Shown: positions 7,909 through 27,736 of the stretch, piece by piece
Position numbering within the stretch: the first letter of the stretch is position 1
Layout of the letters: each line of letters starts with the position of its first letter
IMG/VR virus record: IMGVR_UViG_2617270950_000011
Reading direction: 5' to 3' (one strand)
From: a virus
Lineage: Duplodnaviria; Heunggongvirae; Uroviricota; Caudoviricetes
Length of the DNA stretch: 30,900 nt
Notes under the pieces: model-generated
The model's database searches: none
Told to the model about the DNA's origin: nothing
The model's input: only the letters and a program-made list of their open reading frames with translations
Made by a program: the position numbers and the translations under genes

Positions 7909-8035
7909 GGGTTACTGCTTCGTTCTGAGAATTTTTTCGGTCTGTCGGCAGTGCCGGTAAAGCTGCGATAAGGGGAGGTTAAGCGCCCACTCCGGGCCGC
8001 TTTTTGTCACCATCCCCAGCACAATTGCGGCTTCT

Positions 8036-8512
8036 TCAATCTGATCCCGGCACTGCATCTGGTCGCCCCCGTTCAGCGACCAGCTTTCCGGCCATCGCGG
8101 AATCAAGCAGGCTTACTGCCGCCATCAGTCGGGAGAGATCGCGCTCGCTGAGCTGTCCTATCTGACGCGGAGACAATGGCCCCTCAATCTGGCCGACAGC
8201 GGCAATCTGACGGCGCAGCAGCGCAATGCCGCGCAGTGCCGGTGAGGCCACAAGAACCGGACCGTTTCGGGTTTCCATAAGACGCTCGGCCTCGCTCTCC
8301 GCATCAATGCTGTCTTTTGCCGTCAGTTCGCGGAAGGTGACGCGGTATTCACGGGATTCCCCGAACGGCAGACCGTCGAGCAGATCCACATAGCCGTTCG
8401 CCAGTTGTTCAGCCAGCCCGGCGGTGCGGGGATCGCCGTCTTCAAGTGCATCCCGGATAGCCTCCATCACGGCCTCGTCAGAAACCGCCGTTTTTTTCTT
8501 ACGTGTGCTCAT
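8036..8512 (-). CDS. Putative tail assembly chaperone
   Basis: 158-aa acidic ORF between tail tube and tape measure, the position chaperones occupy in contractile-tail phages. A 64-aa ORF in the +1 frame (7912..8106) bridges to the tape measure start. Confidence 0.4.
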   Translation of the reverse strand: MSTRKKKTAVSDEAVMEAIRDALEDGDPRTAGLAEQLANGYVDLLDGLPFGESREYRVTFRELTAKDSIDAESEAERLMETRNGPVLVASPALRGIALLRRQIAAVGQIEGPLSPRQIGQLSERDLSRLMAAVSLLDSAMAGKLVAERGRPDAVPGSD

Positions 8513-8526
8513 TACATTTTTCCTGA

Positions 8527-8892
8527 TTACTGGACACGGGTACTGGTGGCGCTGGCGAACTTCGCGGAGATATCACCACCACCGTCAAGCGAGGCCGGTT
8601 CACTGCTCCAGGCCTTCGTCATCATGTGGACTTCACCGGTATCGGCCACGAACTCAATCGTGACCGCAGTCCAGGTGTTGATTTCATCGGCAGCCGGTGA
8701 ACCTTCTCCGCCAGCCGGAAATTTACAGTCCAGCGTCGCCTCACGGGGTTTCTCGCGATAGCCGTAAACTTTCGCGCCTTTCACCACTTCACGCTCAAAG
8801 CCGGACGGGGAGAACGTGGCCCCCTCAAGGGTGTCGTACTCCTGCCCGTTCACACGGATGGTGGCCGTGCCCTGATACTGTTTTCCGCTCAT
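8527..8892 (-). CDS. Tail tube protein
   Basis: 121-aa ORF immediately downstream of the sheath gene. Confidence 0.6.
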   Translation of the reverse strand: MSGKQYQGTATIRVNGQEYDTLEGATFSPSGFEREVVKGAKVYGYREKPREATLDCKFPAGGEGSPAADEINTWTAVTIEFVADTGEVHMMTKAWSSEPASLDGGGDISAKFASATSTRVQ

Positions 8893-8900
8893 GCCTTACC

Positions 8901-10403: not shown

Positions 10404-10681
10404 CAGGACGTCCCCTTATCTGATGCTGCGGTTTTTTCAGCCACCGCCGCAGTTTTTTCTGCTACCGCTCCCGCTGGTTTTGCCGCCGCGCCGGTATTAG
10501 CAGTTGTGGCAGCCGGGGCAGGCTCCGCCGTTTTATCCACCACAATGACGTCGCCATCATTAAGACGGCGGCACCAGAACGGAGTGAAGGGTTTCTCTTC
10601 CCCGTCCTGAGAGAGCGGAGTCATCGTGTCGGGATCGCGGATCAGGCATCCCGGCGCAGGTTTAATAAAAATGGTTGTCAT
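10403..10681 (-). CDS. Hypothetical phage protein (Mu gp38-like position)
   Basis: 92-aa ORF with an Ala/Thr-rich C-terminus, ATGA-coupled to the sheath gene. Confidence 0.4.
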   Translation of the reverse strand: MTTIFIKPAPGCLIRDPDTMTPLSQDGEEKPFTPFWCRRLNDGDVIVVDKTAEPAPAATTANTGAAAKPAGAVAEKTAAVAEKTAASDKGTS

Positions 10682-10684
10682 CTG

Positions 10685-11248
10685 TTATTCCTCTGACAGT
10701 CCGGCGTTTTCACCGGCGGCAGTTGCACCAGGCAGACGGATGTGTGCCTTAAATTCCGGCGTGCCTTCCGGTTCGGTAAAGGTTTCGTAATGGCGCAGGA
10801 AATCATCCAGCGAGCTGATATCCGTCAGCGGGTCGATCATTTCCTCGCATGAGAAATACAGGGCGTACATCACGGCACCGCTGCCTGCCTGCGTTTCGGT
10901 GTAACCGTTGACCGCCTTTTCAAAGTAAAGCGGTGAGGTTTTTTCTGCTCTGAAGCCGTCCAGCACGGTAATCAGGCGGGCCACAATCTGATAAAGCCCG
11001 GGACGGCTGACCTCACGGCCATTGAGCATGTCGCCGATGACGTAGAACACCCAGTGACTGACCAGACGCCCACGGGTACGCCCTTCACCGGCACCCAGCC
11101 AGGCAACATAGATAGCCGGGGCGTTAATCAGCATGGTGCGCAGTACGCTGTCGCTCCAGTCGCCGGGATGTGTGTCAACAGACACCAGTTCATTCCCGAA
11201 ATACTCACGGATACGGGCGATGTACGCCTGCTCGGTTTCCGTAATCAT
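10685..11248 (-). CDS. Phage morphogenesis protein (Mu gp37-like, DUF1834-type)
   Basis: 187-aa ORF (MITETEQAYIARIREYFGNELVSVDTHPGDW...) upstream of the sheath; family assignment from memory. Confidence 0.45.
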   Translation of the reverse strand: MITETEQAYIARIREYFGNELVSVDTHPGDWSDSVLRTMLINAPAIYVAWLGAGEGRTRGRLVSHWVFYVIGDMLNGREVSRPGLYQIVARLITVLDGFRAEKTSPLYFEKAVNGYTETQAGSGAVMYALYFSCEEMIDPLTDISSLDDFLRHYETFTEPEGTPEFKAHIRLPGATAAGENAGLSEE

Positions 11249-11372
11249 ATAAAGCCCTTCTGGTTGCGCCCGAACACCGCCGCATCAGACTGCACCTGCG
11301 GTAAATCCCCGGATTCAGGGGCCGCACCGTCTGTATCCACGCCGACCGGCACGTTACCGTTCATGACATCTT

Positions 11373-12518
11373 TCAGCCAGGCCAGCGCCTCACGGTATCC
11401 GAGTAATACAGAAACGGTTTGCCATGATGGCGAATACCGTGCTGTATGGCACCGGCTACGGCGAAAACATTTTCAGCCAGGTCAAGGCTCCAGCCCACCA
11501 CAAAGCGCGTGCCACCGTCGATAACAAAGGTCACTTCCGGTGCGAATGGCCGCCCGTGAACCGGGTGCGCGCATTTCAGCTTCATGCCGTGACCGTCACC
11601 AATCCAGACATAATTCACCGGCATTTTTGACCAGTCGCGGCGCGTGAATCCCTCAAGCTGGCGGTATTCACTGCCGGTAACCCGTCCTTTTTGTTTCACC
11701 ACTTCCGGCAGTTTCTTCATTGCGCGGCGAATGGTGTCATAAGACGGCATGATATCGAGCATATAAGGCTCATCAGCGTGCCGGTGCTGCCATTCGGCAA
11801 CAAAATCCTCGTAAGCCTCGGTCATTGGTCGGCCGTTTGACTGGCGATACTGCGCCAGAAATTCGGGCAACCAGTTAATATCTTCGGCTTTTATTTCCTG
11901 GCGTTTACCTGGTGCCAGCAAAAGCAGGCGTTCAGCAGCGTTCTGTGCCTTATTAAAGGCCGCAATCCAGCGTTTCAGCGTGATTTCACTCAACACGCGA
12001 CTGTTTCCCTTTCTGGCGTTCGCTATCTCAACCATTGCCACAATGCGCTCATCCAGTTGCGAGTGTGACAGGCGGTCAACGATGAACCAGATAGCTTTAG
12101 CGCAGCTGAAACCGGGTTGTTGCGTGAATTTCAGCACCTCACTGACGATCGCAATGCGTGCGTCTGCCACCTGGCGCTGGTTTTCAGTCAGGGCATTGAG
12201 GCGTTCGACCATCAGTTGTGGTGATCCGCGATATGCCTCCACCGCATCAACCACGGCAGACGAGCGTCTGGCCTTTGTCACCACCGGAGCCGGTGATTCA
12301 TCGGCTTTTTGCGTCATCAGTTGCAGGGCATAACGTTCGCGTAATGCCTGCTGTGTCACTTCAGGTAAACAGTCAATGCTGTATTCAAAACCTTTAGCGC
12401 CTTTCTTGCGGCGTCTGCTGGTTTCGCTGGTTGCATACTTCCTGATTGAATAGCGAACGCCTTGCTCCGTTCCCGGCATCCCCGGTAATCCAACCAGTTC
12501 TTTGACTGAAGCAAACAT
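11373..12518 (-). pseudogene. Mu-type DDE transposase (MuA-like), C-terminally truncated after the second catalytic Asp
   Basis: 381 aa. N-terminus has the Mu winged-helix end-binding pattern (SVKELVGLPGMPGTEQGVRYSI...GAKGFEYSIDCLP); WIGDGHGMKL and ...YYSDTVRRWPG* match the first two DDE aspartate regions of MuA (recalled). The catalytic Glu and C-terminal domains are missing, and the next gene is gp37-like, not B. Confidence 0.75.
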
Positions 12519-12520
12519 AA

Positions 12521-12751
12521 TTACGCGACCTTACGAATGTAGCGGCTGGGCCAAATCTCCTCGGGCGGCACCCCCAGGCATTCCGCGATAATCCCCTCAT
12601 ACTTGGGAACATGGCGGTATACCGCGTTGTACAGATTGTTCTGACCCACGCCAGCTTTACGGGCCAGCGCCCTCATGCTTCCTTCTCTGGCTCTGACTTC
12701 CCCCAAAATTCTTTGAGGATGCCAATCAGGCTTAACTTCATTTCTCGCCAT
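12521..12751 (-). CDS. ner: Ner-like DNA-binding regulator
   Basis: 76 aa; ...WHPQRILGEVRAR...ALARKAGVGQNNLYNAV...PEEIWPSRYI matches the Mu Ner/Nlp pattern (recalled); sits immediately upstream of the transposase on the same strand. Confidence 0.75.
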   Translation of the reverse strand: MARNEVKPDWHPQRILGEVRAREGSMRALARKAGVGQNNLYNAVYRHVPKYEGIIAECLGVPPEEIWPSRYIRKVA

Positions 12752-12780
12752 GATTCATCTATCCTAAAAAGTTACGAAAT

Positions 12781-12804
12781 TTGATAACTAAACTTAGTTA
12801 TCAA
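12781..12804. promoter_or_regulatory. Operator-like 24-bp palindrome in the divergent ner/repressor control region
   Basis: TTGATAACTAA-AC-TTAGTTATCAA: 11-bp perfect inverted arms, with further TTGATA half-sites just upstream (~12779) and downstream (~12806); lies between the divergent Ner-like and repressor genes. Confidence 0.5.
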
Positions 12805-12935
12805 GTTTGATATAAGTATTGATCCACTTCTGCTTCATGTAAAGCAAAAAAACATCTTTCTTTTGTCTATTGTGGATCAATGGTTGCTGACAACACTAAA
12901 AGTTAATAATTTCAAATTGATAGGAAGAAAAGAAA

Positions 12936-13481
12936 ATGAACAAGCAAACAACAACATCTCTTTCTTTTCCTGGTGGTAGAAAAGAAAGCATTGCTGAGCG
13001 TCTGAAAAGGCTGATTGGCTCCCGCAGCGTCAGAGCTGCAGCAAGAGATTGGGGGCTTTCATTTTCAACACTAAACAATTATCTGTCTCGTGGCACTGAG
13101 CCATCCTTAAGTGTCGCCCTTCAGATTGCGTCTATCGAAGGAGTAAGTGTTGAGTGGCTATGTGGATTCAGTGATGCATCACAAGTGAATCGGTGCGAGA
13201 TCAAAGAAAATCAAGATGAAAGCAAGAAGATAATTATGACGATTATCAGCGCACTTGATGAAAAAGACTTAGAGCAGCTATCGAAAAATTTGGTTCTGAA
13301 TGGAGCCAAGTACTTAGCTCGGTTGTTAGAGCCTGAAAATCAAGATCTAATCCGCTTAGAAGGAAGGAAAAGAATAGCTGCATTACAGCTTGAAGGTATG
13401 TCTGACGAACGCGTCAGAGAGATTTTGGAAGAAACTGAGAGAAGTCGCAAATCTAACGCGGTAGAACCAAAAGCGGGTTAA
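12936..13481 (+). CDS. Phage repressor with CI-type N-terminal HTH (Phage_CI_repr-like)
   Basis: 181 aa; ...ERLKRLIGSRSVRAAARDWGLSFSTLNNYLSRGTEPSLSVALQIASIEGVSVEWLCG is a CI-type helix-turn-helix; divergent from ner across the operator palindrome. Confidence 0.7.
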   Translation: MNKQTTTSLSFPGGRKESIAERLKRLIGSRSVRAAARDWGLSFSTLNNYLSRGTEPSLSVALQIASIEGVSVEWLCGFSDASQVNRCEIKENQDESKKIIMTIISALDEKDLEQLSKNLVLNGAKYLARLLEPENQDLIRLEGRKRIAALQLEGMSDERVREILEETERSRKSNAVEPKAG

Positions 13482-13555
13482 TAGCATTAGCCCGCATTTT
13501 GCACTATATCGAGTATTTCGCATTGTTTGGAACGCCTTAAAAGACTAAAACCACA

Positions 13556-13711
13556 GTATCAAATGAGTTGCCGATTTTATAATAAATGACTAATTATTGC
13601 ACAATCGGTATCAAATAGACCTTATCCGCACATCTAGCCATCACCTGTTTTATTTCAGTATCTTACAGGTGATTTCACCTCCTTTCACTAAAACCCTTGT
13701 CGGTATCAAAT
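13556..13711 (+). repeat. Three direct copies of GTATCAAAT plus a 9-bp inverted repeat at the repressor/gene A junction
   Basis: GTATCAAAT at 13556-13564, 13608-13616 and 13703-13711; inverted repeat ATCACCTGT / ACAGGTGAT at 13640-13648 and 13665-13673; TTATCCGCA (DnaA-box-like) at 13622-13630. Function unknown. Confidence 0.4.
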
Positions 13712-15715
13712 GATTCACCTGGTTATATTAACGAGGCCGCCGCAGCATTCTCATGGAACAGCCCGAAAAAGGCTATTAACCCTTATCTGGACCCGGCGGA
13801 AGTTGCGCCGGTTTCTGCGCTTTCAAACCTGATCACTCTGTACGCTGCCGATAACGAGCAGGAACAACTGCGCCGCGAGGCACTGAGTGATCAGGTTTGG
13901 GAGCGTTATTTCTTTAATGAATCCCGTGATCCTGTCCAGCGCGAAATGGAGCAGGATAAGTTCATTAGCCGGGCAAAGTTGGCGCATGAGCAGCAGCGTT
14001 TTAACCCGGACATGGTCATTCTGGCAGACGTTAACGCCCAGCCTTCCCATATCAGCAGGCCGCTGATGCAACGTATTGAATACTTCAGCAGCCTTGGTAG
14101 GCCAAAGGCTTATTCCCGCTATTTACGTGAGACGATTAAGCCATGTCTGGAACGGCTGGAGCATGTACGCGACAGTCAGCTATCCACTTCTTTTCGCTTT
14201 ATGGCAAGCCATGAAGGGCTGGACGGCCTGCTGATTCTGCCTGAAATGAGTCAGGATCAGGTGAAACGCCTGTCCACCCTTGTTGCTGCGCATATGAGCA
14301 TGTGCCTTGATGCAGCTTGTGGCGATTTGTATGCCACCGATGACGTTAAGCCAGAAGAAATCCGCAAGACATGGGAAAAGGTGGCAGCAGAAACCCTGCG
14401 ACTGGATGTCATACCGCCTGCGTTTGAGCAACTCCGCCGGAAAAGAAACCGCCGTAAACCCGTGCCCTATGAACTCATTCCGGGTTCGCTGGCGCGTATG
14501 TTGTGCGCCGATTGGTGGTACCGGAAATTATGGAAGATGCGTTGCGAATGGCGGGAAGAGCAGTTGCGTGCTGTTTGCCTGGTCAGCAAAAAAGCATCTC
14601 CCTATGTCAGCTATGAAGCCATGATGCATAAACGTGAGCAGCGCCGTAAGTCGCTGGAGTTTTTCCGTTCTCATGAACTGGTGAACGAAGACGGCGACAC
14701 GCTGGACATGGAGGATGTGGTAAACGCCAGCAGCAGCAACCCTGCGCATCGCCGCAATGAGATGATGGCCTGTGTTAAAGGTCTGGAGCTTATCGCGGAA
14801 ATGCGCGGTGACTGCGCCGTTTTCTACACCATCACCTGTCCGTCACGTTTCCATTCCACGCTAAATAACGGCAGGCCCAACGCTGAATACGTTAATGCCT
14901 GGGCGTCTCTGCATCGTGTTCAGCAATTCCGCTTCTTTGGCATTCCGGGGCGTCAGGCTTACCGTGAACTGCGATTGCTGGCTGGTCAGGCGGCAAGGCA
15001 ACAGGGGGACAAAAAAGCAGGTGCGCCGGTACTGGATAACCCGCGCCTTGATGCAATCCTGGCTGCTGCTGATGCTGGTTGTTTTGCCACCTACATCATG
15101 AAGCAGGGCGGCGTACTGGTTCCCCGCAAATATCACCTCATCAGAACTGCTTATGAAATCAACGAAGAACCGACCGCATATGGCGATCACGGTATTCGTA
15201 TTTATGGCATCTGGTCACCCATTGCAGAGGGCAAGATCTGCACTCATGCGGTGAAGTGGAAAATGGTTCGTAAGGCCGTTGACGTTCAGGAGGCGGCAGC
15301 CGACCAGGGCGCTTGCGCCCCTTGGACTCGTGGCAATAACTGTCCCCTTGCTGAAAATTTGAACCAACAAGGGAAAGACAAATCAGCTGATGGGGATACC
15401 AGGACGGACATTACCTGCATGGATGACAAGGAGTTGCACGATTACCTGCACAGTATGAGCAAAAAAGAGCGCCGGGAACTGGCTGCAAGGTTACGCCTGG
15501 TGAAACCGAAACGGCGTAAAGACTACAAACAGCGAATTACAGACCATCAGCGACAGCAGCTCGTCTATGAACTGAAGTCCAGAGGATTTAATGGCAGCGA
15601 GAAAGAGGTCGATTTACTCCTTCGCGGCGGCAGTATTCCGTCAGGAGCAGGCCTGCGTATCTTCTATCGGAACCAGCGTTTGCAGGAAGATGATAAGTGG
15701 CGAAACCTGTATTAA
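13697..15715 (+). CDS. P2 gene A-family replication initiator homologue, apparently missing the HUH/Tyr catalytic core
   Basis: 672-aa ORF from a TTG start (true start uncertain). [23 protein letters not shown] and [27 protein letters not shown] resemble recalled P2 A segments, but no HxH or YxxxY motif occurs anywhere in the ORF. Confidence 0.7.
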
Positions 15716-15807
15716 TTACGCGGGTTAACAATTCGTGCTCTTAATAATACCAGGCATATCAGGCTGATGAACGTAAAAAAACGTTTTACATCAGTAAGAT
15801 TATTATA

Positions 15808-15827
15808 TACTGTAAATATAAACAGTG
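15808..15827 (+). promoter_or_regulatory. LexA (SOS) box
   Basis: TACTGTAAATATAAACAGTG fits CTGT-N8-ACAG with an AT-rich spacer; about 40 bp upstream of the small ORF and DinI-like gene; a second half-site (TGTATACAGTA) follows at ~15832. Confidence 0.7.
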
Positions 15828-15868
15828 GTTATGTATACAGTATTGCTTGTGGTGTCATAGGAGGAAAG

Positions 15869-16057
15869 ATGCAGGACTATTTTTTGGAGTCTTTGAAGCT
15901 CCAGCGCATTGATTTTTTTCTTAAGCTTGTAGCGGCTAGTGAGTGTAGTGATGAAGAGAAGGGGCTGGCTTTGCAGTGGGTTTCTGAACTGACAGATGAA
16001 CTCATGGCAAAAATCAGAACCCACGAATACAACCGCTCAATGGATGTCATCAGCTGA
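15869..16057 (+). CDS. Small SOS-controlled protein, possibly Tum-type antirepressor N-domain homologue
   Basis: 62 aa from the ATG at 15869, preceded by AGGAGG. Downstream of the LexA box and upstream of a DinI-like gene, the arrangement of the 186 tum locus; the function is inferred from context only. Confidence 0.4.
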   Translation: MQDYFLESLKLQRIDFFLKLVAASECSDEEKGLALQWVSELTDELMAKIRTHEYNRSMDVIS

Positions 16058-16067
16058 GGTGACTTTT

Positions 16068-16301
16068 ATGCGCATTGAAATAATGATCGATAAAGAGCAG
16101 AAGATTAGCCAGTCTACCCTAGACGCCCTTGAATCCGAGCTTTACCGCAATCTGCGCCCCCTATATCCAAAAACGGTAATTCGCATCCGCAAAGGTAGCT
16201 CTAACGGTGTGGAACTGACCGGACTGCAACTGGACGAAGAAAGAAAACAAGTGATGAAAATTATGCAGAAGGTGTGGGAAGACGACAGCTGGCTGCATTA
16301 A
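16068..16301 (+). CDS. DinI-family protein
   Basis: 77 aa: MRIEIMIDK...LDALESELYRNLRPLYP...KQVMKIMQKVWEDDSW aligns along its length with E. coli DinI (MRIEVTIAK...IDALAGELSRRIQYAFP...ISEILQETWESADDW, recalled); GAGGTG ribosome-binding site. Confidence 0.8.
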   Translation: MRIEIMIDKEQKISQSTLDALESELYRNLRPLYPKTVIRIRKGSSNGVELTGLQLDEERKQVMKIMQKVWEDDSWLH

Positions 16302-16309
16302 GAAACCTT

Positions 16310-16345
16310 GCCCCCAAGAGAATTTATTCTGATGGGGGCTAGTTT
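16310..16345 (+). terminator. Putative intrinsic terminator after the DinI-like gene
   Basis: GCCCCCA ... TGGGGGC stem with an inner AGAAT/ATTCT stem, followed by TAGTTTGGG. Confidence 0.45.
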
Positions 16346-16707
16346 GGGCAACGAGTGAAACGAGGCGTAAGGTGGGCGGCCATTTTGATAAGTGATTGTA
16401 CGCTTTGTGTTGTGAGTTCAACGGGTCGATGCAACGCTATCCTTAATCAAGGGGACGTTGCTCATACCCATCGATGCAATGAAAATCCATACTCATGGGG
16501 AAGACCAGAATGTCCCTGCCTTTTTCATTTTGTTCAGCACATGCACTATGGCCATTGCCTTCCCAAGCTAGCTATCGTAATCACTCAGCGTCAGTAAACT
16601 ACTGAAAAATTGTTTTACCTTGTATATCAATAATGCCAAATCATACCCAAAAAATCGAAAATAATTAGATCGACAGGCAGAAGGCAATGTGAATAATCTT
16701 AAAAACC

Positions 16708-16737
16708 TTGACTGCCAGTGAGGTTTGGTTCTATAAA
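16708..16737 (+). promoter_or_regulatory. Candidate sigma70 promoter for darT-darG
   Basis: TTGACT (16708-16713), 18-bp spacer, TATAAA (16732-16737); AGGA ribosome-binding site before the ATG at 16769. Confidence 0.45.
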
Positions 16738-16768
16738 TAGACTTACGAATTTGAAAGGATGAGTTGAA

Positions 16769-17350
16769 ATGAGCGAAAGGAAAAGAATTGAAGATCAGTA
16801 TCTTCTCTATCATTTAACATGTATGGATAATCTACCTAGTATTTTAGACACAGGATTAAGATCTCGTGCATCAGTAAAAGGTGAGTTTGTTGATGTGGCC
16901 GACGGTGAAATAATAACAGGTCGCGAAGCATTAAATTTGCAAACAATGGTTCCTTTTCATTTCTTTACTAAGAATCCATTTGATGGAAGAGTCCTGAAAG
17001 ATCATAAGGAAAAATCATTTTGTATTATTTCGGTTTGTCGGGCATTTGCCAAAGAAAATGGTTGGAAAGTTATCCCTAAACATCCATTATCCACCAGTTC
17101 TGTTATAGACCTCTTAGATTATGAACAAGGAATGGCCCAAATTGACTGGGAGCTTATGAATATAAGGGATTATAAAAATGCAGAATGCAAATCTGTATGT
17201 ATGGCTGAGTGTTTATCAAGTGTAACGGTCGAGCCGAAAAATTTCCATTGCATCTTTGTCAAAAATGATAACGAAAAAAAATATGTTGAAGGGTTGATAA
17301 AACAACAAGGATTAAGTATATTGATAACGATCAACACTTATATGTTCTAA
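16769..17350 (+). CDS. darT: DarT, DUF4433 ssDNA ADP-ribosyltransferase toxin
   Basis: 193 aa; N-terminal LLYHLTCMDNLPSIL matches the DarT YHITHIDNL signature; VPFHFF and a downstream AECLS (candidate catalytic Glu) motif; followed 4 nt later by a macrodomain gene. Confidence 0.8.
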   Translation: MSERKRIEDQYLLYHLTCMDNLPSILDTGLRSRASVKGEFVDVADGEIITGREALNLQTMVPFHFFTKNPFDGRVLKDHKEKSFCIISVCRAFAKENGWKVIPKHPLSTSSVIDLLDYEQGMAQIDWELMNIRDYKNAECKSVCMAECLSSVTVEPKNFHCIFVKNDNEKKYVEGLIKQQGLSILITINTYMF

Positions 17351-17354
17351 TTCT

Positions 17355-18326
17355 ATGATTAAGTATGCAAGCGGAAATCTTCTAAACTCTACATCGCAAG
17401 CTCTTGTGAATGCTGTAAACTGCCAAGGAGTCATGGGAAAGGGTATTGCTTTGGCTTTTAAAGAAACTTTTCCCTATAATTTCGAAGTTTATAAGAGAGC
17501 ATGCACCACTGGTACAATGAAAATTGGACAGGTTTTAATTGTAGAGGAAAAGGGAAAAATAATCGTAAACTTTCCCACTAAAGATAGTTGGAGAAAAAAA
17601 TCAACATATGATTTTATCTCGCAAGGCCTTGAATCTTTAGCAAAAATTATAGACGAAAAAAAAATTACATCAATATCAATACCACCTTTAGGCTGTGGTA
17701 ATGGGGGCCTCGATTGGAATAAGGTTGAGGCTCTTATTTTAAAAACTTTTCAAAATTTAGATAATGTTGATGTGGTAATTTATCCGCCTGCAACTAACAA
17801 TCAGCTTTCAAAAAATAAAAATGTTATTAATGCTAAGCATCTTTTGGTTCACTACGCCTATGGAAAATTAAAAGTTAAGCAAAAATATTCCCTTTATACA
17901 GTTTTTTATATTTGCGAATGTATTGAGAAAGCAAATCTTTTTTTATTCGATTTTAAACATGGTCGGCCATACTCTTCTGAGTTAGAAAATATTATGAAGG
18001 ATATAGCAAACCTTAAAGTTGAGTTGCAAGGAGATTTTGATGCTTTTATTGAAGATTATATTAATACTCATCAATCCAAAGAGTTACAAACCGAGTTTGG
18101 TAAACTAATCTCAACTTTAAATCCAAGTATAAGTTTTCTCAATGCTCTTAAAAATAAGATTGATTATACAGATAGCGTACATGTGATCACGAGAATTGCT
18201 AAAGAAAAAGATCATGGCTTGCATATTGACAATTTCAAAGAATATGAAAATATTGTGCAGCATTTAATTAAAAATGGATTGGTAATCGAAGATATTTTTA
18301 ACGAACTAAAAATAAAGGGAAGTTAG
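17355..18326 (+). CDS. darG: DarG, macrodomain antitoxin
   Basis: 323 aa; N-terminal ALVNAVNCQGVMGKGIALAFKETFP is a macrodomain signature; translationally coupled to darT (stop 17348-17350, ATG 17355). Confidence 0.8.
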   Translation: MIKYASGNLLNSTSQALVNAVNCQGVMGKGIALAFKETFPYNFEVYKRACTTGTMKIGQVLIVEEKGKIIVNFPTKDSWRKKSTYDFISQGLESLAKIIDEKKITSISIPPLGCGNGGLDWNKVEALILKTFQNLDNVDVVIYPPATNNQLSKNKNVINAKHLLVHYAYGKLKVKQKYSLYTVFYICECIEKANLFLFDFKHGRPYSSELENIMKDIANLKVELQGDFDAFIEDYINTHQSKELQTEFGKLISTLNPSISFLNALKNKIDYTDSVHVITRIAKEKDHGLHIDNFKEYENIVQHLIKNGLVIEDIFNELKIKGS

Positions 18327-18999
18327 TAGCGCTATTTTCAATTTTTTTGCTGAAATTGCGCATGCACACTCTTACGCATTATAGATGCGGCGTTAATCCC
18401 GCCAGGAGTGTTGTTTAATAAATTGAACTATTTCTGCATTGAAGGATCAACTTACGCATTCGCTGACAACGCAGGCACTCTCCTGGCTAAGCAGAAATTC
18501 AGAGTAACCAACTGGCACTTTTACAACAATTTTCTTATCAGTTGCGGCTCCATGACTTTCTGGTGGGATAACAAAGCAATTAAGGCGTGGTATTGTAAGT
18601 ATCCCGCATAATCATGCTAGTAACATTTGTCCCCCATGTAACCTAATTAAGGCAACTTCCGCTCTTCGCTCACAGTGAACCTCCATGTTTGTAAACCCGT
18701 ATATTTCGTTTTTCAAGTGGTCATTCAGATACGGATTTTCACTTCTCTTGGCTGTGCATGTCTATGCCGCATGAATCCGCATGATCGTTTGAGGATCGTT
18801 TTTGCTGAGGCCCCCCAGAACTGGCGGGCTTTTGCTTATGTCATGCAGGTGCATGAAAACCACTGCATAAAGCGGGCAGGCGTGGCGGGGATACGAGCGC
18901 GCGCTAACTCATAAATCTTAGATTATTAGTGGATTTATCTCATTGAAATGTGCACTATTCCCAGCATTGAGTTGTACCAGATGTCTTTATGGAGGGACT

Positions 19000-20766
19000 G
19001 TGGCTTTTGTAACTGATATTCGGCTTGAAGATAATGCTATTGCTGCACCTGCGACAGCACAGGTTATGGCTCAGAGGCTAGGATCTGTATTACGTAAGAG
19101 ATATGAAGAATTCATCCATAAAAGAGAGTGTGCACCAGGCCAAGCAGACTATGATGTAAAAATGGCTAGCAGGGCTTTAGCTGCATTCACTATGTATCAG
19201 TTAGGATGTGTGGATGATAAGTATGCAGGGGAGTCTGTATGTGATAGTAGTGAAGATGGTGGTATAGATGGAATAGCAATCAACCATAACGAAAAAATCG
19301 TTGTTGTTGTTCAATCAAAATTTCACCAATCGGGAAACGGCACTTGGACAAGAGCCGATTTTATGTGTTTTAAGGATGCTTGTGAGAAGCTACAAAGTGA
19401 AAGATACGAATTATTTGATTCCATATTGCAAAATAAAAGCGGGGAAATAAGTGCGGCTTTAAGTAGTTTTGAATACAAGTTCATCTTTGCGATGGCGCAT
19501 ACAGGTAAAAAAGGTGCTGCAGAGGAAATATTAAATGATATGCGGGAATGGCAATATCAATTAAACGCTGCAGCTTTTACACCTGAGGATGAGCCTAAAG
19601 AGAACTGGGGATTTCAGGTTCATTTAATATCCTCTGAAGATATGATGCATTGGTTACAGAATGGCTCTCGAAATCAAATTGATCTTAACAGGGTTGAAAT
19701 TGAGCGTTTTGGATTTTTGAATGAACCATATCAAGCTTTTTACGGGGCTATTAGTGGTGATCAAGTTGCAGAATGGTGGGAAGAGCATGGTGCTCGATTA
19801 TTTACAAAAAACATAAGGAATATGCTTGGTAAAACAGAAGTGAATGAGGAAATAAAAAAGACAGCTATAGATAATCCTGATATGTTTTGGTTTTATAATA
19901 ATGGGATTACTGTACTGGTTAAGGAGGTTGTTCCTCATAGACGAAACGCAGCTCCTAATATAGAGAGAGGGATTTTTGATTTTCGTGATGTAAGTGTCAT
20001 TAATGGTGCACAAACAGTCAGTAGTATTGGCGCATGTAAAGATGCGCTTGGTGAAAACATATATAGACTCAAAGTGCCAGCTAGATTCATTGTTATAGAT
20101 GATGATACTGATAATTTAACTGCAAATGCGATTACAAAAGCTAACAATTTCCAAAATAGAGTATTGGGAAGAGATTTTGCGTCGCAGCAGGCAGATCAAC
20201 ATAGATTGGCAAGGGAGTTAGTGCTTGAAGGATATCAATATCAGTTACTAAGAACAGATGAAGATCATTCACAGACAAATACGAAAGTCATTGACTTGGA
20301 TGAGGCGCTCAATGCACTCGCATGTTTAAGTAAAAATAATACGGTTGTATCGACACTAAAATCAAATCGCGGTAGGTTTTTTGAAAATTTTGAAGGCTCT
20401 CTATATAAAACTATTTTCAATCCAAGATTAAGTGGTTTAAAACTTATCAATACTGTTCTACATTTTAGAGTTATAGATAAGTTGATCGGTAAAACATTAC
20501 TATCAGTAGATAAAACTACCCATAGTCGCAAGCATTTAATTATTACGCATGGTAATAGATACTATGCGTCTGTGCTATTGAGCAACGTTTCTGGGATACA
20601 TAATAGCTCAGAAATTCTTGTTCCAGATGAAAAAAATCTTTCCGAAGAATTAAGTGCATTAATTCAACGTGCTGAAGAGTACATTGAAGATAATTACCCG
20701 AATGCCTATCCGGCAAGATTTTTTGCAAATCCAACGAAAATACAAGAGTTATACGATAATGTTTAA
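19000..20766 (+). CDS. Uncharacterised 58x-aa to 607-aa protein, tentatively AIPR-family with an N-terminal PD-(D/E)xK-like motif; candidate defence gene
   Basis: Maximal ORF 18943..20766 starts at TTG; the GTG at 19000 follows GGAGGG and the ATG at 19066 is an alternative. Motifs seen: DGGIDGIAINHNEKIVVVVQSKF, FWFYNNGITVLV, VINGAQTVSSIG. No Walker A, so not P2 Old. AT-rich. Confidence 0.5.
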   Translation: MAFVTDIRLEDNAIAAPATAQVMAQRLGSVLRKRYEEFIHKRECAPGQADYDVKMASRALAAFTMYQLGCVDDKYAGESVCDSSEDGGIDGIAINHNEKIVVVVQSKFHQSGNGTWTRADFMCFKDACEKLQSERYELFDSILQNKSGEISAALSSFEYKFIFAMAHTGKKGAAEEILNDMREWQYQLNAAAFTPEDEPKENWGFQVHLISSEDMMHWLQNGSRNQIDLNRVEIERFGFLNEPYQAFYGAISGDQVAEWWEEHGARLFTKNIRNMLGKTEVNEEIKKTAIDNPDMFWFYNNGITVLVKEVVPHRRNAAPNIERGIFDFRDVSVINGAQTVSSIGACKDALGENIYRLKVPARFIVIDDDTDNLTANAITKANNFQNRVLGRDFASQQADQHRLARELVLEGYQYQLLRTDEDHSQTNTKVIDLDEALNALACLSKNNTVVSTLKSNRGRFFENFEGSLYKTIFNPRLSGLKLINTVLHFRVIDKLIGKTLLSVDKTTHSRKHLIITHGNRYYASVLLSNVSGIHNSSEILVPDEKNLSEELSALIQRAEEYIEDNYPNAYPARFFANPTKIQELYDNV

Positions 20767-20770
20767 ACTA

Positions 20771-20794
20771 AAGGGAGGTTGCCTCCCTTTTTTT
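20771..20794 (+). terminator. Intrinsic terminator after the 607-aa gene (hairpin plus T-run)
   Basis: AAGGGAGG-ttg-CCTCCCTT followed by a run of T; the reverse strand also ends in a shorter T-rich stretch (possibly bidirectional). Confidence 0.6.
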
Positions 20795-20796
20795 AA

Positions 20797-21321
20797 TTAG
20801 AAATGGTATTCTTGGAATTCAATAACACCTTCTTTTATGAAATTGTTTATTTCTTGTAATCTTTTTTGCAATGGCAATAATTCATTACGTACAAATACTT
20901 TACTCGCCTTCTCTACATCTCCAAAGCCCCCAACATTATTAGGCATTATCCCCATCATTTGCGGCGGCACACGGTGTGCCGCCATCATGTCGTCCCGGCT
21001 CACGTTCTTGATATTTAGAAACTCATCCTTCGCCGCGACTTCTGACAACGGGATAATCTGAAGCCCGTCCTTTTTGCCGTTAGGAGAGTACATAAACAGG
21101 TTGCGGAAGTTGCCTGGCCCTTTGGCGCTTTTCATTGCGTTGCGGAGGTTGTTCACATCTTCTTGGTTCTGCGCGGCATCGGTCATGTACATGATGAAGC
21201 CTGCATGACTACCGTTAATGTAATACTTGCGGCGGAACAGCGTGGCGGACTCGTTGAGCAGGGCCGACGGAATGGCAGAAAGATAACCGGGCAGGCCGTA
21301 GACCTCCTGGTTGATGTCCGG
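20797..21321 (-). pseudogene. Portal protein (P2 gpQ-like) C-terminal fragment
   Basis: Frame open from 21321 down to the stop at 20797; ...AHRVPPQMMGIMPNNVGGFGDVEKASKVFVRNELLPLQKRLQE resembles portal C-termini (recalled). The N-terminal portion is absent. Confidence 0.5.
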
Positions 21322-22244
21322 TTATCGGCTTTGTTGCGCCCACGGTTGAATAGCGCACCGGACCAGAACGGATAAGCACTGTGTGTCAGGCTGGATGGCG
21401 TGGAAAAATAGGTTTGTCGCCATTTCTTGTGAATAGCCATACCGGAAGCCACTTTGCGCAGCTCCTGGAATTTCGGTATCCAGAAATATTCATCCAGATA
21501 CAGGTTGCCGTGATAACTCTGGGCAGTGCGGGCATTGGTGCCGAGGAAGTAAAGCGTGGCCCCGTTAGGAAGCACCATCGGATCGCCTTTCAACTCCACC
21601 TCCACTTCTTTGGCGAAGTCGATGATGTACTGCTTAAAGACGTGGGCCTGTGCCTTGCTGGCGGAAAGGAAAATCTGGTTACGTCCGGTCAGCAGGGCGT
21701 CAATCAGGGCTTCACGGGCAAAGTAAAAGGTCGCGCCGATCTGGCGTGACTTCAGCAGGTTGCGGATGCGGTTGGTTTTTCCGGCTTCCCACCAGTGGCG
21801 CTGGTAGTTGAACATGGAGGAATGGAAGATTTCTTCCAGCTTCTCAATCTGCTCATCGGTGAAAACATTCTTTTCCGGCTGACGGCGTGGGCCTTTGTTG
21901 CGGTTGGCGACGTTAGGGTTTAAGTCGGATTCGTTGCCGCCATTGTTAAACTTGCCGATCCGCGCGTGGCGCTCAGACTGGCGCGCCAGCAGGTCAATCT
22001 CTTTGAAATCTTTCCCTTCTTTGTGCTCCTTCATGATGAGCTGGCAGTAGCGTGCGGCGGTGGTGAGCTGCATCTGATCCAGCGGCCCATAGTCACCCCA
22101 CTTGTCGCGTTTTTTCCAGCTGTGAACGGTTGCAACTTTCTCGCCCAGCATTTCAGCAATGCGGGCTACGCGGTATCCCTGAAAGTACAGCAGCATGGCC
22201 TGCCGACGGGGATCGAGATCTGCGGGTGTCAGTGTGGTGTTCAT
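21183..22244 (-). pseudogene. Terminase large subunit (P2 gpP-like) N-terminal ATPase fragment running out of frame into the portal fragment
   Basis: Walker A-like [12 protein letters not shown] and Walker B-like [10 protein letters not shown]; credible sequence ends near ...[11 protein letters not shown] (~21350), after which the frame reads low-complexity junk to the stop at 21183. The nuclease half is missing. Confidence 0.7.
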
Positions 22245-22290
22245 GGCACAAACCTACAGCCTTGAATGAAGGCTTTCCCCGCCTGCGGTT

Positions 22291-22308
22291 TGTGTGGTTG
22301 TCTGGACA
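22291..22308. promoter_or_regulatory. TGT-N12-ACA dyad (Ogr-type late promoter element) in the gpP upstream region
   Basis: TGTGTGGTTGTCTGGACA; the P2 late-promoter dyad is normally centred near -55. It lies about 50 bp from the gpP start and may be the PP or PO element. Confidence 0.4.
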
Positions 22309-22632
22309 GACGGCATTGGTAATACATCTGGTGTCATTCCAGGCAAAACCATTACGGAACGACAGGCAGCGGAAGGGCTGATCTCCAACGTGCTGCGTGT
22401 GGAGCGGGCGCTGGAAAGGTGTGTGAAGCAACAGCCGCCGCAGAAAGTGTATGACGCGGTGGTGTCATTTGCCTTCAACGTGGGGACAGGCAATGCCTGC
22501 AGCTCCACGCTGGTGAAATTGCTCAATCAGCGGCGCTGGGCGGATGCGTGCCGACAGTTGCCGCGCTGGGTTTATGTGAAAGGTGTTTTTAATCAGGGGC
22601 TGGATACTGGAGCTGAAGGTGTATGTGGATGA
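22294..22632 (+). pseudogene. T4-type (GH24) phage lysozyme fragment, truncated at both ends
   Basis: VSFAFNVGTGNACSSTLVKLLNQRRWADACRQLPRWVYVKG parallels the RrrD-type lysozyme core ([41 protein letters not shown], recalled). The N-terminal catalytic region is missing and the C-terminus reads into the fibre fragment. Confidence 0.65.
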
Positions 22633-23580: not shown

Positions 23581-24057
23581 ATGAAAAGTTGTGATGATTA
23601 TCAACATGATTCTTCTTATGATTTCATATGGGATAAGGTAAATGCCAGATTTATGGCGTATATATTAAAAAATGAATATGAAAGAAATGGAATGTGGCCT
23701 AAGGAAGGGGTGGATATTTCAAATGAGACTGCTTGTGAATTCATGAAACAACCTCCGGAAGGAAAAATTCTTGGGGCAGATGATAATGGTATGCCTGCAT
23801 GGATTGATACGCCACCACTCACATATACAGAGTTAGTGGCTAAAGCAAAAACTGAAAAACAAGCACGTATAATAGAAGCTGTAAATTATATAAATAACAA
23901 ACAATGGCAGGGGAAAGCATTGCTTGGGAGACTGAATGCTACTGAACTGGAAATGTATAACATATGGCTTGATTATATTGAAGCATTAGAGGCTATTGAT
24001 CCATCAAAAGCCTCTGATACAGCCTTTCCGACTAAGCCATTTAACGATTCAGTCTGA
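23581..24057 (+). CDS. Tail fibre assembly protein (Tfa / gpG-like)
   Basis: 158 aa with the typical C-terminus ...QWQGKALLGRLNATELEMYNIWLDYIEALEAIDPSKA; immediately follows the fibre. Confidence 0.75.
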   Translation: MKSCDDYQHDSSYDFIWDKVNARFMAYILKNEYERNGMWPKEGVDISNETACEFMKQPPEGKILGADDNGMPAWIDTPPLTYTELVAKAKTEKQARIIEAVNYINNKQWQGKALLGRLNATELEMYNIWLDYIEALEAIDPSKASDTAFPTKPFNDSV

Positions 24058-25072
24058 GAATTGGATTAACAAACAACCGATCAATAATCAAGCTTAAACC
24101 AAGGCTGATAAAAAAAATGACTAAAGACAGGGATGTTGTTTTTAGTAAAATGTTGTCCACGATAAAAGGAATATTGAAATATTTCTCTAAGACTCTGAAA
24201 ACACAAACATGAATTAAATAAATTCCGTATGTCAGAGGTGCTATTTTTTCAATGATTAAAATTATTTTTTTATTATTGATGTTTATTTTTGTAAATGCAA
24301 TTACTATCAAGGAACACATTAACAACATATTAATCCCTGAGTCAAATGGGTATATGTTAAAGTTATATTTGTTAACGCTAAAATAAACAAACATCACATG
24401 TAGTAAAAATATAAAAGGGATGCTATATACAATATAATGTGTTTTAATGTCAACTCTTTTTAATAATCCGCCGACAACAAAATATAAAACCCATGTATCT
24501 ATGCTCTGTAATGGGATTAAATGATGGTAGTATTGAGAGGATTGGCTTAGAGAGTATGAGTATAATGAATAATAAAAAATGAAAGCCAAAACTATAATCA
24601 CCTTAAGGCTGTCGGCTTGTGGGATTTTATTGACTATGTATTGAATTGCTGGAGCGGTTAAATACAAACCGATAAAGGCATAAACAAACCAGAAATGCAC
24701 AGAGAGTGAAATAGTGCTTTTAGATATTAATGAGAAATATTCAAGTAAATTCGATGACGTTCCATTATTCCAGCTAATAATATAGTAATGTGCTAATGAA
24801 TATATTACAAAAGGGATAATAATGGCGGGGATTCTTTTTTTATAAAACAAAAGTGGAGTGCTATTTTGTCTGTTGAGTAGGTAGTATCCACTTAACATAA
24901 AGAATATTGGTAAACCAATGCGTACAATTGATTGTGCAAAAAGAGTTTGTATTTGTATACTTTCTGTTTGGTTACTGGTAACAGTATAAGCATAGTCGGG
25001 CGTGACATGAATTCCTATTACAAAAATACAACAAATAATACGTAACAGGTCTAAAGAAATATCTCTTTTCAT
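24041..25072 (-). CDS. Acyltransferase-3 family integral membrane protein (O-antigen/surface glycan acyltransferase-like)
   Basis: 343 aa, polytopic and very AT-rich; N-terminal MKRDISLDLLRIICCIFVIGIHV fits the acyltransferase_3 start (R-x-D-x-x-R ... H). Opposite strand to flanking late genes, in the P2 Z/fun position; its 3' end overlaps tfa by 17 bp. Confidence 0.7.
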   Translation of the reverse strand: MKRDISLDLLRIICCIFVIGIHVTPDYAYTVTSNQTESIQIQTLFAQSIVRIGLPIFFMLSGYYLLNRQNSTPLLFYKKRIPAIIIPFVIYSLAHYYIISWNNGTSSNLLEYFSLISKSTISLSVHFWFVYAFIGLYLTAPAIQYIVNKIPQADSLKVIIVLAFIFYYSLYSYSLSQSSQYYHHLIPLQSIDTWVLYFVVGGLLKRVDIKTHYIVYSIPFIFLLHVMFVYFSVNKYNFNIYPFDSGINMLLMCSLIVIAFTKININNKKIILIIEKIAPLTYGIYLIHVCVFRVLEKYFNIPFIVDNILLKTTSLSLVIFFISLGLSLIIDRLFVNPILRLNR

Positions 25073-26467: not shown

Positions 26468-27736
26468 ATGGCTTTACCACGTAAATTAAAACATCTGAAC
26501 CTGTTTAACGACGGGAACAACTGGCAGGGGATCGTAGAGTCGCTGACGCTGCCGAAATTCACCCGCAAATATGAGAAGTATCGCGGCGGCGGTATGCCGG
26601 GGGCGGTGGATGTGGATCTGGGACTGGATGACGGCGCACTGGATACTGAATTTTCCATTGGCGGTACTGAGCTGCTGCTGTTTAAGCAGATGGGCAAAGC
26701 TACGGTGGATGGCATCCAGCTGCGCTTTACCGGCTCTATCCAGCGTGACGATACCGGGGAAGTGCAGGCCGTGGAGCTTGTGGTGCGTGGACGTCACAAA
26801 GAAGTGGATTCCGGCGAGTGGAAGACGGGCGAAAGCAACACCACCAAAGTGACCAGTACCAACAGCTACGCGAAGCTGACCATCAATTGTGAGGTGCTCT
26901 ACGAAGTGGACCTTATCAACATGGTGGAAATTGTGGACGGTGTCCGGGCGCGAAGTGCTGATTTTCGGGAAACGCTGAATACCCGCCGTGAAAAATCGTG
27001 GCACAAGACCACAGTTGGGGAAGTGGTGAAGGAAATAGCCGCGCGTCACAAGCTGAAGATGGCACTGGGTAAAGACCTGTCAGATAAACCCGTGGAACAT
27101 ATAGACCAGACTAATGAGAGTGACGGCAGTTTTCTGATGCGGCTGGCGCGCCAGTACGGTGCTATTGCGTCGGTGAAAAATGGCAATCTGTTATTCATTC
27201 GGCAGGGACAGGGTAAAAGCGCCAGCGGTAAACCACTGCCGGTGATCACTATCACACGTAAGGACGGCGACAGTCACCGCTTTACCCTGGCAGATCGCGG
27301 ATCTTACACGGGCGTAATTGCCAGCTGGTTGCATACCCGCGAACCCGCGAAGAAAGAAAGCACCACGGTGAAGCGTAAGCGCAGGACCGCAAAGCAGAAG
27401 AAAGAGCCGGAAGCGAAGCAGGGCGATTACCTGGTGGGTACGGATGAAAACGTGCTGGTACTTAATCGTACTTATGCCAACCGGGGCAACGCTGAACGAG
27501 CGGCGAAAATGCAGTGGGAACGCCTGCAACGCGGCGTTGCGTCATTCTCGCTACAACTGGCGGAAGGGCGGGCAGATCTCTACACGGAAATGCCAGTGAA
27601 AGTCAGTGGCTTTAAACAGCCGATAGATGATGCGGAATGGACCATTACGACTCTGACACATACCGTCAGCCCGGATAATGGTTTTACGACCAGTCTGGAG
27701 CTTGAAGTGAGGATTGATGATTTCGAAATGGAATGA
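26468..27736 (+). CDS. In-frame fusion of tail tube FII (N-terminal ~145 aa) to tail protein D (C-terminal ~275 aa)
   Basis: N-terminus MALPRKLKHLNLFNDGNNWQGIVESLTLPKF is tube-like; from RARSADFRETLNTRREKSWH...HIDQTNESDGSFLMRLARQYGAIASVKNGNLLFIRQ the sequence is gpD-like (recalled). The FII 3' end, E/E', T, U and D 5' end are absent. Confidence 0.7.
   Translation: MALPRKLKHLNLFNDGNNWQGIVESLTLPKFTRKYEKYRGGGMPGAVDVDLGLDDGALDTEFSIGGTELLLFKQMGKATVDGIQLRFTGSIQRDDTGEVQAVELVVRGRHKEVDSGEWKTGESNTTKVTSTNSYAKLTINCEVLYEVDLINMVEIVDGVRARSADFRETLNTRREKSWHKTTVGEVVKEIAARHKLKMALGKDLSDKPVEHIDQTNESDGSFLMRLARQYGAIASVKNGNLLFIRQGQGKSASGKPLPVITITRKDGDSHRFTLADRGSYTGVIASWLHTREPAKKESTTVKRKRRTAKQKKEPEAKQGDYLVGTDENVLVLNRTYANRGNAERAAKMQWERLQRGVASFSLQLAEGRADLYTEMPVKVSGFKQPIDDAEWTITTLTHTVSPDNGFTTSLELEVRIDDFEME

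Follow-up and report, generated by a model that had tools for sequence, protein, structure and literature searches.

The window analysed here is a stretch of 30,900 nucleotides, IMG/VR virus record IMGVR_UViG_2617270950_000011. It carries a two-gene operon, darT and darG, followed by a transposase fragment and a third gene, and damaged phage genes lie on either side. In window coordinates, the features are as follows:

13697..16301, + strand: left flank of the hotspot, with a damaged gpA, a small orf and a DinI-like gene
within 13697..16301, + strand: P2 gpA replication gene, damaged (the first 34 nt are missing, and 393 nt have been lost internally, in frame, at 14881/14882)
15869..16057, + strand: small orf (from annotation)
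16068..16301, + strand: DinI-like gene (DinI Pfam match, 1.3e-22)
16648..16768, + strand: region upstream of darT with the native promoter (a published forward primer starts at 16648)
16670-16697, + strand: candidate sigma-70 site TCGACA-16-AATAAT, from a consensus scan
16708-16737, + strand: candidate sigma-70 site TTGACT-18-TATAAA (-35 at 16708-16713, -10 at 16732-16737), read from the sequence
16754-16759, + strand: Shine-Dalgarno-like AAAGGA upstream of darT
16769..17350, + strand: darT, 193 aa, DNA ADP-ribosyltransferase toxin of the DarT2 class
17355..18326, + strand: darG, 323 aa, macrodomain antitoxin
DarG residues ~1-148, N-terminal: TARG1-like macrodomain (PDB matches and Foldseek)
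DarG residues ~150-323, C-terminal: predicted DarT-binding-type domain (family profile match)
18483..18590, + strand: IS5/IS1182-family transposase fragment (RefSeq annotation of the identical E423 DNA, placed by coordinate offset)
19000..20766, + strand: AIPR-family (AbiU-like) gene, 588 aa counted from the annotated ATG (TTG 18943 is the start of the mechanical ORF)
20797..22244, - strand: right flank, a C-terminal fragment of the portal gene (Q) and an N-terminal fragment of the terminase gene (P), joined by a deletion

The two genes are bicistronic, with darT first, an order found again in all six related P2-like prophage loci examined. The stop codon of darT (TAA, 17348-17350) is followed by “ttct” and then by the ATG of darG at 17355, so that the 4-nt gap reported in an earlier sequence-only reading of this DNA is exact. 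Given this short gap, and since no purine-rich Shine-Dalgarno sequence precedes the darG ATG, translational coupling of darG to darT is plausible. The same reading gave the pair a sigma70-like promoter of its own: the motif is indeed there, at 16708-16737, but taken alone it is no better than chance, since a consensus scan returned 12 promoter-like sites in this AT-rich stretch against 8.9 +/- 3.0 in shuffles, i.e., no enrichment. One has to note that the scanner demands a T at the last -10 position, which is why TTGACT-18-TATAAA is left off its list. The motif is nonetheless a plausible functional promoter, and a promoter somewhere within 16648-16768 is supported by a published clone, 16648..18353, described as natively expressed; the 121 nt upstream of darT are identical in strains E423 and RM10809-3. 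A search of 16560-16800 revealed neither inverted nor direct repeats, and thus no evidence of an RptR-like or autoregulatory site upstream of darT, and a scan of the + strand downstream of darG found no terminator-like site. The GC content of the hotspot cargo is 29-35%, versus about 52% in the phage backbone.

The assignment of the first gene product, a DUF4433 protein, to DarT holds at the levels of profile, residues and fold. The protein matches DarT/DUF4433 (PF14487) in Pfam at 9.2e-22 (78.2 bits for a cut-off of 22.5, over profile positions 1-199 of 201) and the PADLOC DarT model at 2.2e-36, and it is 100% identical to RefSeq WP_016239482. Among 31 homologues, H15 (the NAD-binding His), R52 (the catalytic Arg) and E147 (the conserved Glu) do not vary, so that the catalytic residues are all present. 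In a profile alignment, H13 and R51 of the Thermus protein are the counterparts of H15 and R52, once a shift of one residue in the chain numbering is allowed for; in the T. africanus DarTG chain 7omu, the residue opposite E147 (motif MAECL) is an Ala (motif MAACL), presumably an E-to-A substitution of the crystallised construct. We also examined the conservation of the remaining Thermus active-site residues (H65, Y71, M78 and H119): Thermus Y71, M78 and H65 lie opposite H64, F71 and Q58, in a profile alignment whose register is uncertain at 18% identity. The apparent replacements of Y71 by H64 and of M78 by F71 suggest that NAD+ handling or the target motif may differ in detail from those of Thermus DarT. 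The AlphaFold model of DarT has a pLDDT of 92.6, and its best eight Foldseek matches are all DarT structures (TM 0.70-0.83), headed by Thermus DarT (TM 0.80-0.83), T. africanus DarTG and Mtb DarTG, in spite of a sequence identity of only about 18% to the Thermus and Mtb toxins.

The second gene product, proposed earlier as DarG on the strength of its macrodomain, is equally well placed. It matches Macro (PF01661) at 6.9e-19, this Pfam match and that of PF14487 both exceeding their gathering scores, and the PADLOC DarG model at 5e-80 over residues 1-305. Searched against the PDB, it retrieves the macrodomains of Mtb DarG (2.6e-43; 50% identity over the macrodomain) and of Taq DarG (3.2e-37), and Foldseek superposes the macrodomain on 5m3i with a TM of 0.94 and an rmsd of 0.7. 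The macrodomain active-site residues are conserved: N22, G28-K29-G30, K76, which corresponds to Taq K80 (FPTK76 aligning with FPTK80), and the diphosphate loop GCGNGG (G113-C-G-N-G-G118). As a single sequence, the C-terminal domain gave no significant match in the PDB, while the DarG family profile matches the Mtb DarG C-terminal domain (7yk3_B) with E = 1.4e-5 over profile positions 177-319. DarG is WP_016239483 with the change A51T; both RefSeq alleles compared have A51, and the position varies across the family (T/D/K/N/R and others). Truncation of DarG was considered and rejected, as the 297-aa RefSeq entry WP_052773454 reflects another choice of start codon on the same DNA; the alignment of the 323-aa version with Mtb and Taq DarG begins at residue 1.

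A subtype had been left to a profile search, and the DarTG2 class is the one obtained: the antitoxin is a macrodomain, which defines this class (PMC11543638), and not a NADAR domain, for which reason DarTG1 was rejected. The evidence thus supports a toxin-antitoxin pair of the DarTG2 class, in which the catalytic residues are intact; neither the DarT catalytic Glu nor the DarG macrodomain residues are lost, the two outcomes that would have refuted the earlier reading. RefSeq gives the two proteins the family-level names “DarT ... family protein” and “macro domain-containing protein” because the NCBIfam equivalog cut-offs are not reached, either by the toxin (toxin_DarT, NF048013; 53 vs. 150 bits) or by the antitoxin (antitoxin_DarG, NF048014; 229.9 vs. 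250 bits); these cut-offs delimit narrow NCBI naming families around Thermus/Mtb-like proteins and not the DarTG2 class of the literature.

The pair is already known. The primers published for “darTG2 including promoter” (PMC11257639) have exact matches in the window, at 16648-16677 and 18326-18353, and delimit 16648..18353, that is, promoter, darT and darG; the cloned darTG2 was expressed from its native promoter (PMC11257639). These exact matches point to the locus being the model DarTG2 system of LeRoux et al. 2022, already cloned and shown to block phages, a link that we draw through the primers of a later paper from the same group. Identity is proven at the two primer sites, and the sequence between them is taken to be the same because all 10 E. 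coli copies are at least 99.3% identical. A review of this work (LeRoux et al. 2022, Nat Microbiol 7:1028) has DarT2/DarG2 targeting T5 and SECphi18 and ADP-ribosylating viral DNA; from a plasmid, darTG2 restricts T5, and T4 escapes via the macrodomain protein AdfM (PMC11257639; bioRxiv 10.1101/2025.11.20.689424). The allele is rare, being present in 10 of 5426 complete E. coli genomes. Megablast against a collection of 50,697 phage records returned no match for the locus, so that the allele is absent from the sequenced free phages of that collection. Neither WP_016239482 nor WP_016239483 turned up in full-text searches of the literature; DarT WP_016239482 is, along with AIPR WP_021542068, among the entries of the P2-hotspot tables in Rousset et al. 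2022 (PMC9122126), where the presence of darTG in the P2 hotspot is thus already tabulated.

Set beside other described systems, the pair has both expected likenesses and some features of its own. With the DarTG2 of LeRoux et al. 2022, it shares the combination of DarT and a macrodomain DarG, and no difference is detectable at the primer sites, where the two were compared. The DarTG of Thermus aquaticus, Thermus sp. 2.9 and M. tuberculosis (PMC5179494; PDB 7omv-7on0, 5m31, 5m3i, 7yk3) have the same darT-darG order and the same folds (TM 0.76-0.83 for DarT and 0.92-0.94 for the DarG macrodomain); the equivalents of DarT H13, R51 and E160 and of DarG N22 and K80 are conserved here, the roles of E160 and K80 and the DarTG chemistry being described in PMC5179494. 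Their DarG C-terminal domain is homologous to the present one, which is shorter than in many relatives, and their context is chromosomal or a type I RM locus, whereas ours is a prophage hotspot. The DarTG2 of EPEC E2348/69 (WP_000312835/WP_000634203) is also an E. coli DarTG2-class system with anti-phage activity; it lies inside a type I restriction-modification island, with hsdS on one side and hsdR on the other, under repression by RptR (PMC12255303). The EPEC proteins are different ones: even in distant mode, blastn found no divergent copies of our locus in other E. coli genomes and returned only the 10 near-identical loci. Unlike the EPEC system, the pair stands alone after DinI in the P2 hotspot, with no upstream repeats found. 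The E. coli C7 DarTG1 (PMC11543638, PDB 8baq) is likewise a toxin-antitoxin phage-defence system that ADP-ribosylates DNA, and its DarT has the same fold (Foldseek TM 0.70), but sequence similarity to DarT1 is confined to the N-terminal NAD-binding motif, and DarTG1 has a NADAR antitoxin and a guanine target (PMC11543638), in contrast to the macrodomain antitoxin found here.

The genomic position proved to be the P2 tin/old site, as previously suggested. Indeed, darTG lies between gpA, the small orf and the DinI-like gene on one side and the portal gene Q on the other, in synteny with six P2-like prophages, all of which are at rcdA/ybjL where their flanks are seen. This gpA-Q hotspot is a documented reservoir of anti-phage systems (Rousset et al. 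2022, PMC9122126; Vassallo et al. 2022, PMC9519451); the cargo occupies the same interval as in these studies, from the replication endonuclease gene to the portal gene, but differs from tin and old, and DarTG at this site is not discussed in the main texts of either paper. The description of the E. coli P2-like prophage as degraded is also correct: much of it is deleted and a Mu-like prophage remnant interrupts it, and around the cargo the gpA, portal, terminase, capsid, lysis and tail genes are deleted or truncated. The gpA deletions were mapped by blastn against E423 and RM10809-3, and the Phage_GPA Pfam match (3.9e-70) covers only positions 1-212 of 321. On the right flank, we found a partial Phage_portal match and Terminase_5/Terminase_6N matches in Pfam, and the segments were mapped against an intact-looking P2-like prophage.

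We consider with high confidence that the locus is a DarTG2-class toxin-antitoxin operon for phage defence, which rides as cargo in the gpA-to-portal (tin/old) hotspot; the P2-like prophage around it has decayed since. Our analysis established the gene structure, the family membership, the conserved catalytic residues and the folds, along with the genomic position and the identity with the published locus; toxicity, chemistry and the defence phenotype are taken from the literature. Put together, they give the following mechanism as the most likely one. The two genes would be co-transcribed from a promoter at most about 120 nt upstream of darT, with darG probably translated by coupling to darT. 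DarT, a PARP-like enzyme, would use NAD+ to put ADP-ribose on thymidine bases in single-stranded DNA. In the uninfected cell, the DarG macrodomain would strip this ADP-ribose through its catalytic Lys76, and the C-terminal domain of DarG would bind DarT as a second restraint. Upon infection by a sensitive phage, DarT would escape DarG control and ADP-ribosylate the phage DNA, the replication of which would be blocked, so that no progeny would be released.

The second candidate defence gene noticed beside the pair in the sequence-only reading turned out to be of the AIPR/AbiU type. It matches AIPR (PF10592) in Pfam at 7.3e-35 (121.5 bits for a cut-off of 25), over profile positions 1-305 of 308 and in the C-terminal half of the protein, as well as the PADLOC AbiU model (7.4e-25) and PHROG 1841, “Abi alpha-like” (7.1e-173), and it falls far short of the MzaE equivalog cut-off (58 vs. 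1050 bits). Its DNA is identical to that of E423 WP_021542068. The neighbour is thus a putative defence gene, of abortive-infection type to judge by these matches. The IS5 fragment, which the annotations also give in 5 of the 6 related loci, sits between DarTG and this second module, which across P2-like loci consists of an AIPR gene, a hypothetical plus a STAS-like gene, three hypotheticals or an AAA ATPase. Since the order of DarTG, IS5 fragment and variable module recurs across related P2-like prophages, DarTG could be imagined as a fixed first slot working with a variable Abi-type gene in the second, either by synergy or shared triggering or with the IS5 scar as a recombination joint for module swapping. 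We regard this two-slot organisation as rather unlikely; if it were true, an intact two-module block in a decayed prophage would mark a host-domesticated defence cassette.

The contrast between cargo and surroundings could also be given another meaning. The DarTG and AIPR cargo is intact, a single nucleotide away from the E423 copy, with its neighbours deleted or truncated, and in Thermus and Mtb, DarTG act as a classical toxin-antitoxin pair (PMC5179494); the pair might then be mainly an addiction or stabilisation module holding the prophage remnant or its cargo, with phage defence incidental. Retention of cargo in a decaying prophage is, however, equally expected under host selection for defence, the hotspot is a documented anti-phage reservoir, and the cloned locus protects against phage when carried on a plasmid, where prophage stabilisation is irrelevant; we, thus, give this explanation a low probability. 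Least credible of all, to the point of being nearly negligible, is that DarTG here is a silent or inactive relic, unexpressed or disabled by A51T in DarG or by the loss of a phage-encoded regulator: the regulatory region (int-C-cox-B) is indeed lost from its position, the Mu-like element interrupts the prophage, residue 51 differs from the two reference alleles and the promoter motifs do not rise above chance, but both ORFs are full length with DarT unchanged from its RefSeq entry, residue 51 is variable across the DarG family, the upstream region shared with two other strains lies within the natively expressed clone, and a cell with an active DarT and a dead DarG would not survive, so that the intact darT favours a working pair.

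As a DarTG2 defence operon in a P2 hotspot, the locus is of an importance that goes little beyond annotation. The window shows where in a genome a widely used model DarTG2 occurs in nature, namely in the P2 tin/old hotspot, beside an AIPR gene. An intact DarTG in an otherwise collapsed prophage fits the established picture of hotspots that supply host immunity and are kept after the death of the phage.

The toxin–antitoxin pair is made of two genes:
16769..17350, +, darT, 193 aa, stop codon TAA at 17348-17350
17355..18326, +, darG, 323 aa, start codon ATG
Only four bases (ttct) lie between the darT stop and the darG ATG, as the sequence-only reading had stated; because of this 4-nt gap, and because no Shine-Dalgarno sequence precedes darG, we infer that the two genes are translationally coupled. 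DarT matches the Pfam family DarT/DUF4433 over its full length (9.2e-22, exceeding the gathering score) and the PADLOC DarT profile (2.2e-36), while DarG matches Pfam Macro (6.9e-19) and, through residues 1-305, PADLOC DarG (5e-80). Neither reaches the narrow NCBIfam equivalog cut-offs (53 vs 150 bits for DarT, 229.9 vs 250 bits for DarG), and for that reason RefSeq calls them no more than “DarT ... family protein” and “macro domain-containing protein”. The window DarT is WP_016239482 at 100%, and DarG is WP_016239483 with the substitution A51T, residue 51 being variable across the family. In published usage (PMC11543638), a system that modifies thymidine and whose antitoxin is a macrodomain is a DarTG2, and one that modifies guanine and has a NADAR antitoxin is a DarTG1; having a macrodomain antitoxin, the window pair is a DarTG2.

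RefSeq annotates this darG DNA with two different starts among genomes, at 17355 (M1, 323 aa) and at 17433 (M27, 297 aa). The 297-aa form would drop the first strand of the macrodomain together with N22; since the 323-aa form aligns to the Mtb and Taq DarG proteins from residue 1, the shorter annotation is probably wrong.

We confirm what the sequence-only reading observed, and the evidence supports its interpretation. Earlier publications already cover the system, how it works, its role in defence and its occurrence in the P2 hotspot. Two primers tabulated in PMC11257639, given there to “Amplify darTG2 including promoter”, have locus-specific 3' parts with exact, unique matches in the window at 16648-16677 (+) and 18326-18353 (−), the amplicon extending from 121 nt 5' of darT to 27 nt beyond the darG stop. 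As all E. coli copies are at least 99.3% identical, we infer that the window and the published clone are identical between the primer sites. The same darTG2 plasmid, provided by M. LeRoux, restricts T5, and T4 escapes it through the macrodomain protein AdfM (10.1101/2025.11.20.689424). As summarized in a review, DarT2/DarG2 acts on T5 and SECphi18 via ADP-ribosylation of viral DNA and is more active when growth is slow (LeRoux et al. 2022).

A sigma70-like promoter of its own had also been attributed to the pair. The motif is present (TTGACT at 16708-16713, 18 nt, TATAAA at 16732-16737) and a clone including the promoter is published. Promoter-like sites are not enriched over shuffled sequence (12 vs 8.9 +/- 3.0), and a promoter scanner picks a different site (TCGACA-16-AATAAT, 16670-16697). 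The evidence for the promoter is the published clone rather than the motif. No operator-type repeats were found upstream of darT.

In DarT, the catalytic Glu is in place (E147): H15, R52 and the block C144-M-A-E147-C148 do not vary among 31 aligned homologues, which reach down to 47% in identity. The profile of this alignment sets H15 and R52 opposite a His and an Arg of Thermus sp. 2.9 DarT, which would be H13 and R51 allowing for a one-residue offset in chain numbering; the roles of DarT E160, R51 and H13 are taken from PMC5179494 and PMC9967889. In the same profile, E147 (“MAECL”) falls opposite the Ala in the “MAACL” stretch of chain 7omu (T. africanus DarTG), presumably because the crystallised construct carries an E-to-A substitution. 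With a pLDDT of 92.6, the AlphaFold model is confident, and its best eight Foldseek matches among PDB entries are without exception DarT structures, T. africanus DarTG and Mtb DarTG among them; TM is 0.80-0.83 for Thermus DarT and 0.70 for E. coli C7 DarT1. The Thermus active-site residues H65, Y71 and M78 lie opposite Q58, H64 and F71, in a register that is uncertain at 18% identity; H64 and F71 are invariant in the enterobacterial/pseudomonad subfamily, and the comparison suggests that the nicotinamide pocket may differ somewhat.

In DarG, residues 1-148 share 50% identity with the macrodomain of Mtb DarG (2.6e-43), “FPTK76” stands opposite the catalytic lysine of Taq “FPTK80”, N22 is conserved, as is the GCGNGG loop, and the model superposes on 5m3i with TM 0.94 and rmsd 0.7 A. 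The C-terminal half, searched as a single sequence, has no match in the PDB; a profile of 29 homologues reaches 7yk3_B (1.4e-5), the Mtb DarG C-terminal domain from the DarT–DarG complex. Catalytic residues, whose absence the sequence-only reading had named as refuting it, are present in both proteins, and the assignment therefore stands.

The prophage carrying the pair is degraded, as had been proposed. P2-like homology begins at 13728, 34 nt into gpA (13697..15715), which has an in-frame 393-nt (131-codon) deletion at 14881/14882 relative to E. coli strains E423 and RM10809-3 and matches only positions 1-212 of the 321 in the Pfam GPA profile. The portal is reduced to a C-terminal fragment and the terminase to an N-terminal one; the blocks for capsid, lysis and baseplate have been lost by deletion, and two tail domains are fused:
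26468..27736, +, tail-tube (FII) domain and gpD domain in a single ORF
This fusion indicates that a deletion took out the P2-like tape-measure region; in E423, RefSeq annotates both halves as partial pseudogenes. Over 14879-21374, the window and E423 differ by one nucleotide, and the cargo is, therefore, intact inside a collapsed phage.

E423 lacks 21375-22604 (1.2 kb, holding fragments of the terminase N-terminus and of a lysozyme gene), the remnants being otherwise near-identical; the two strains, thus, show different decay stages of the same prophage. Between the genes for tail-fibre assembly and tail sheath, a position corresponding to the second P2 variable locus (Z/fun; Vassallo 2022), is an Acyl_transf_3 acyltransferase gene (24041..25072, −) that may be a moron acting on the cell surface.

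To the left, 1-13727 is what is left of a Mu-like transposable prophage, internally deleted, lying on the opposite strand and ending 34 nt within P2 gpA:
about 77-11397, Mu-like tail module, joined directly to the left-end block
11373..12518, −, truncated Mu-transposase-like gene, left-end block
12936..13481, +, HTH repressor-like gene, left-end block
Because the left-end block occurs at many different chromosomal sites in other genomes, and about 18.6 kb away from the tail module in strain HH35, the element seems to have inserted itself into the P2-like prophage before losing its own middle.

Of 5426 complete E. coli genomes, 10 carry the allele; none of the records in the phage collection does. 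In all six loci examined, darTG lies 3' of gpA, a small orf and a DinI-like gene, and 5' of the P2-like portal gene, which bears out the proposed tin/old position, a hotspot known from Rousset 2022 and Vassallo 2022; the host prophage sits between rcdA and ybjL in E423 and RM10809-3, where flanks were retrieved. The P2-hotspot table of Rousset 2022 (supplementary) contains WP_016239482 as “DarT ... Macro + DinI”, and likewise WP_021542068, the product of the neighbouring AIPR gene. Two features follow darG:
about 18483-18590, IS5/IS1182 transposase fragment, 108 nt, separating darG from the next cargo gene
19000..20766, AIPR gene (Pfam AIPR 7.3e-35; PADLOC AbiU-like 7.4e-25; PHROG 1841 “Abi alpha-like”)
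The second candidate defence gene announced beside DarTG is this AIPR gene, and “stacked defence cargo” is a fair label for darTG and AIPR. GC content is 29-35% in darTG, 31-42% in AIPR and about 52% in the phage backbone.

The IS5/IS1182 fragment is annotated in five of the six related P2-like prophages (none in 2018-18.25PC), with different downstream genes:

Modules 3' of the IS5/IS1182 fragment (3' of darG in 2018-18.25PC)
Window, E423: AIPR
2018-18.25PC: another AIPR allele
LR-46: hypothetical and STAS-like gene
S40, RM10809-3: three hypotheticals
2018-11-3CC: AAA ATPase

DarTG, the IS5 scar and a variable module form a recurrent layout, in which the fragment could be a recombination joint for module exchange.
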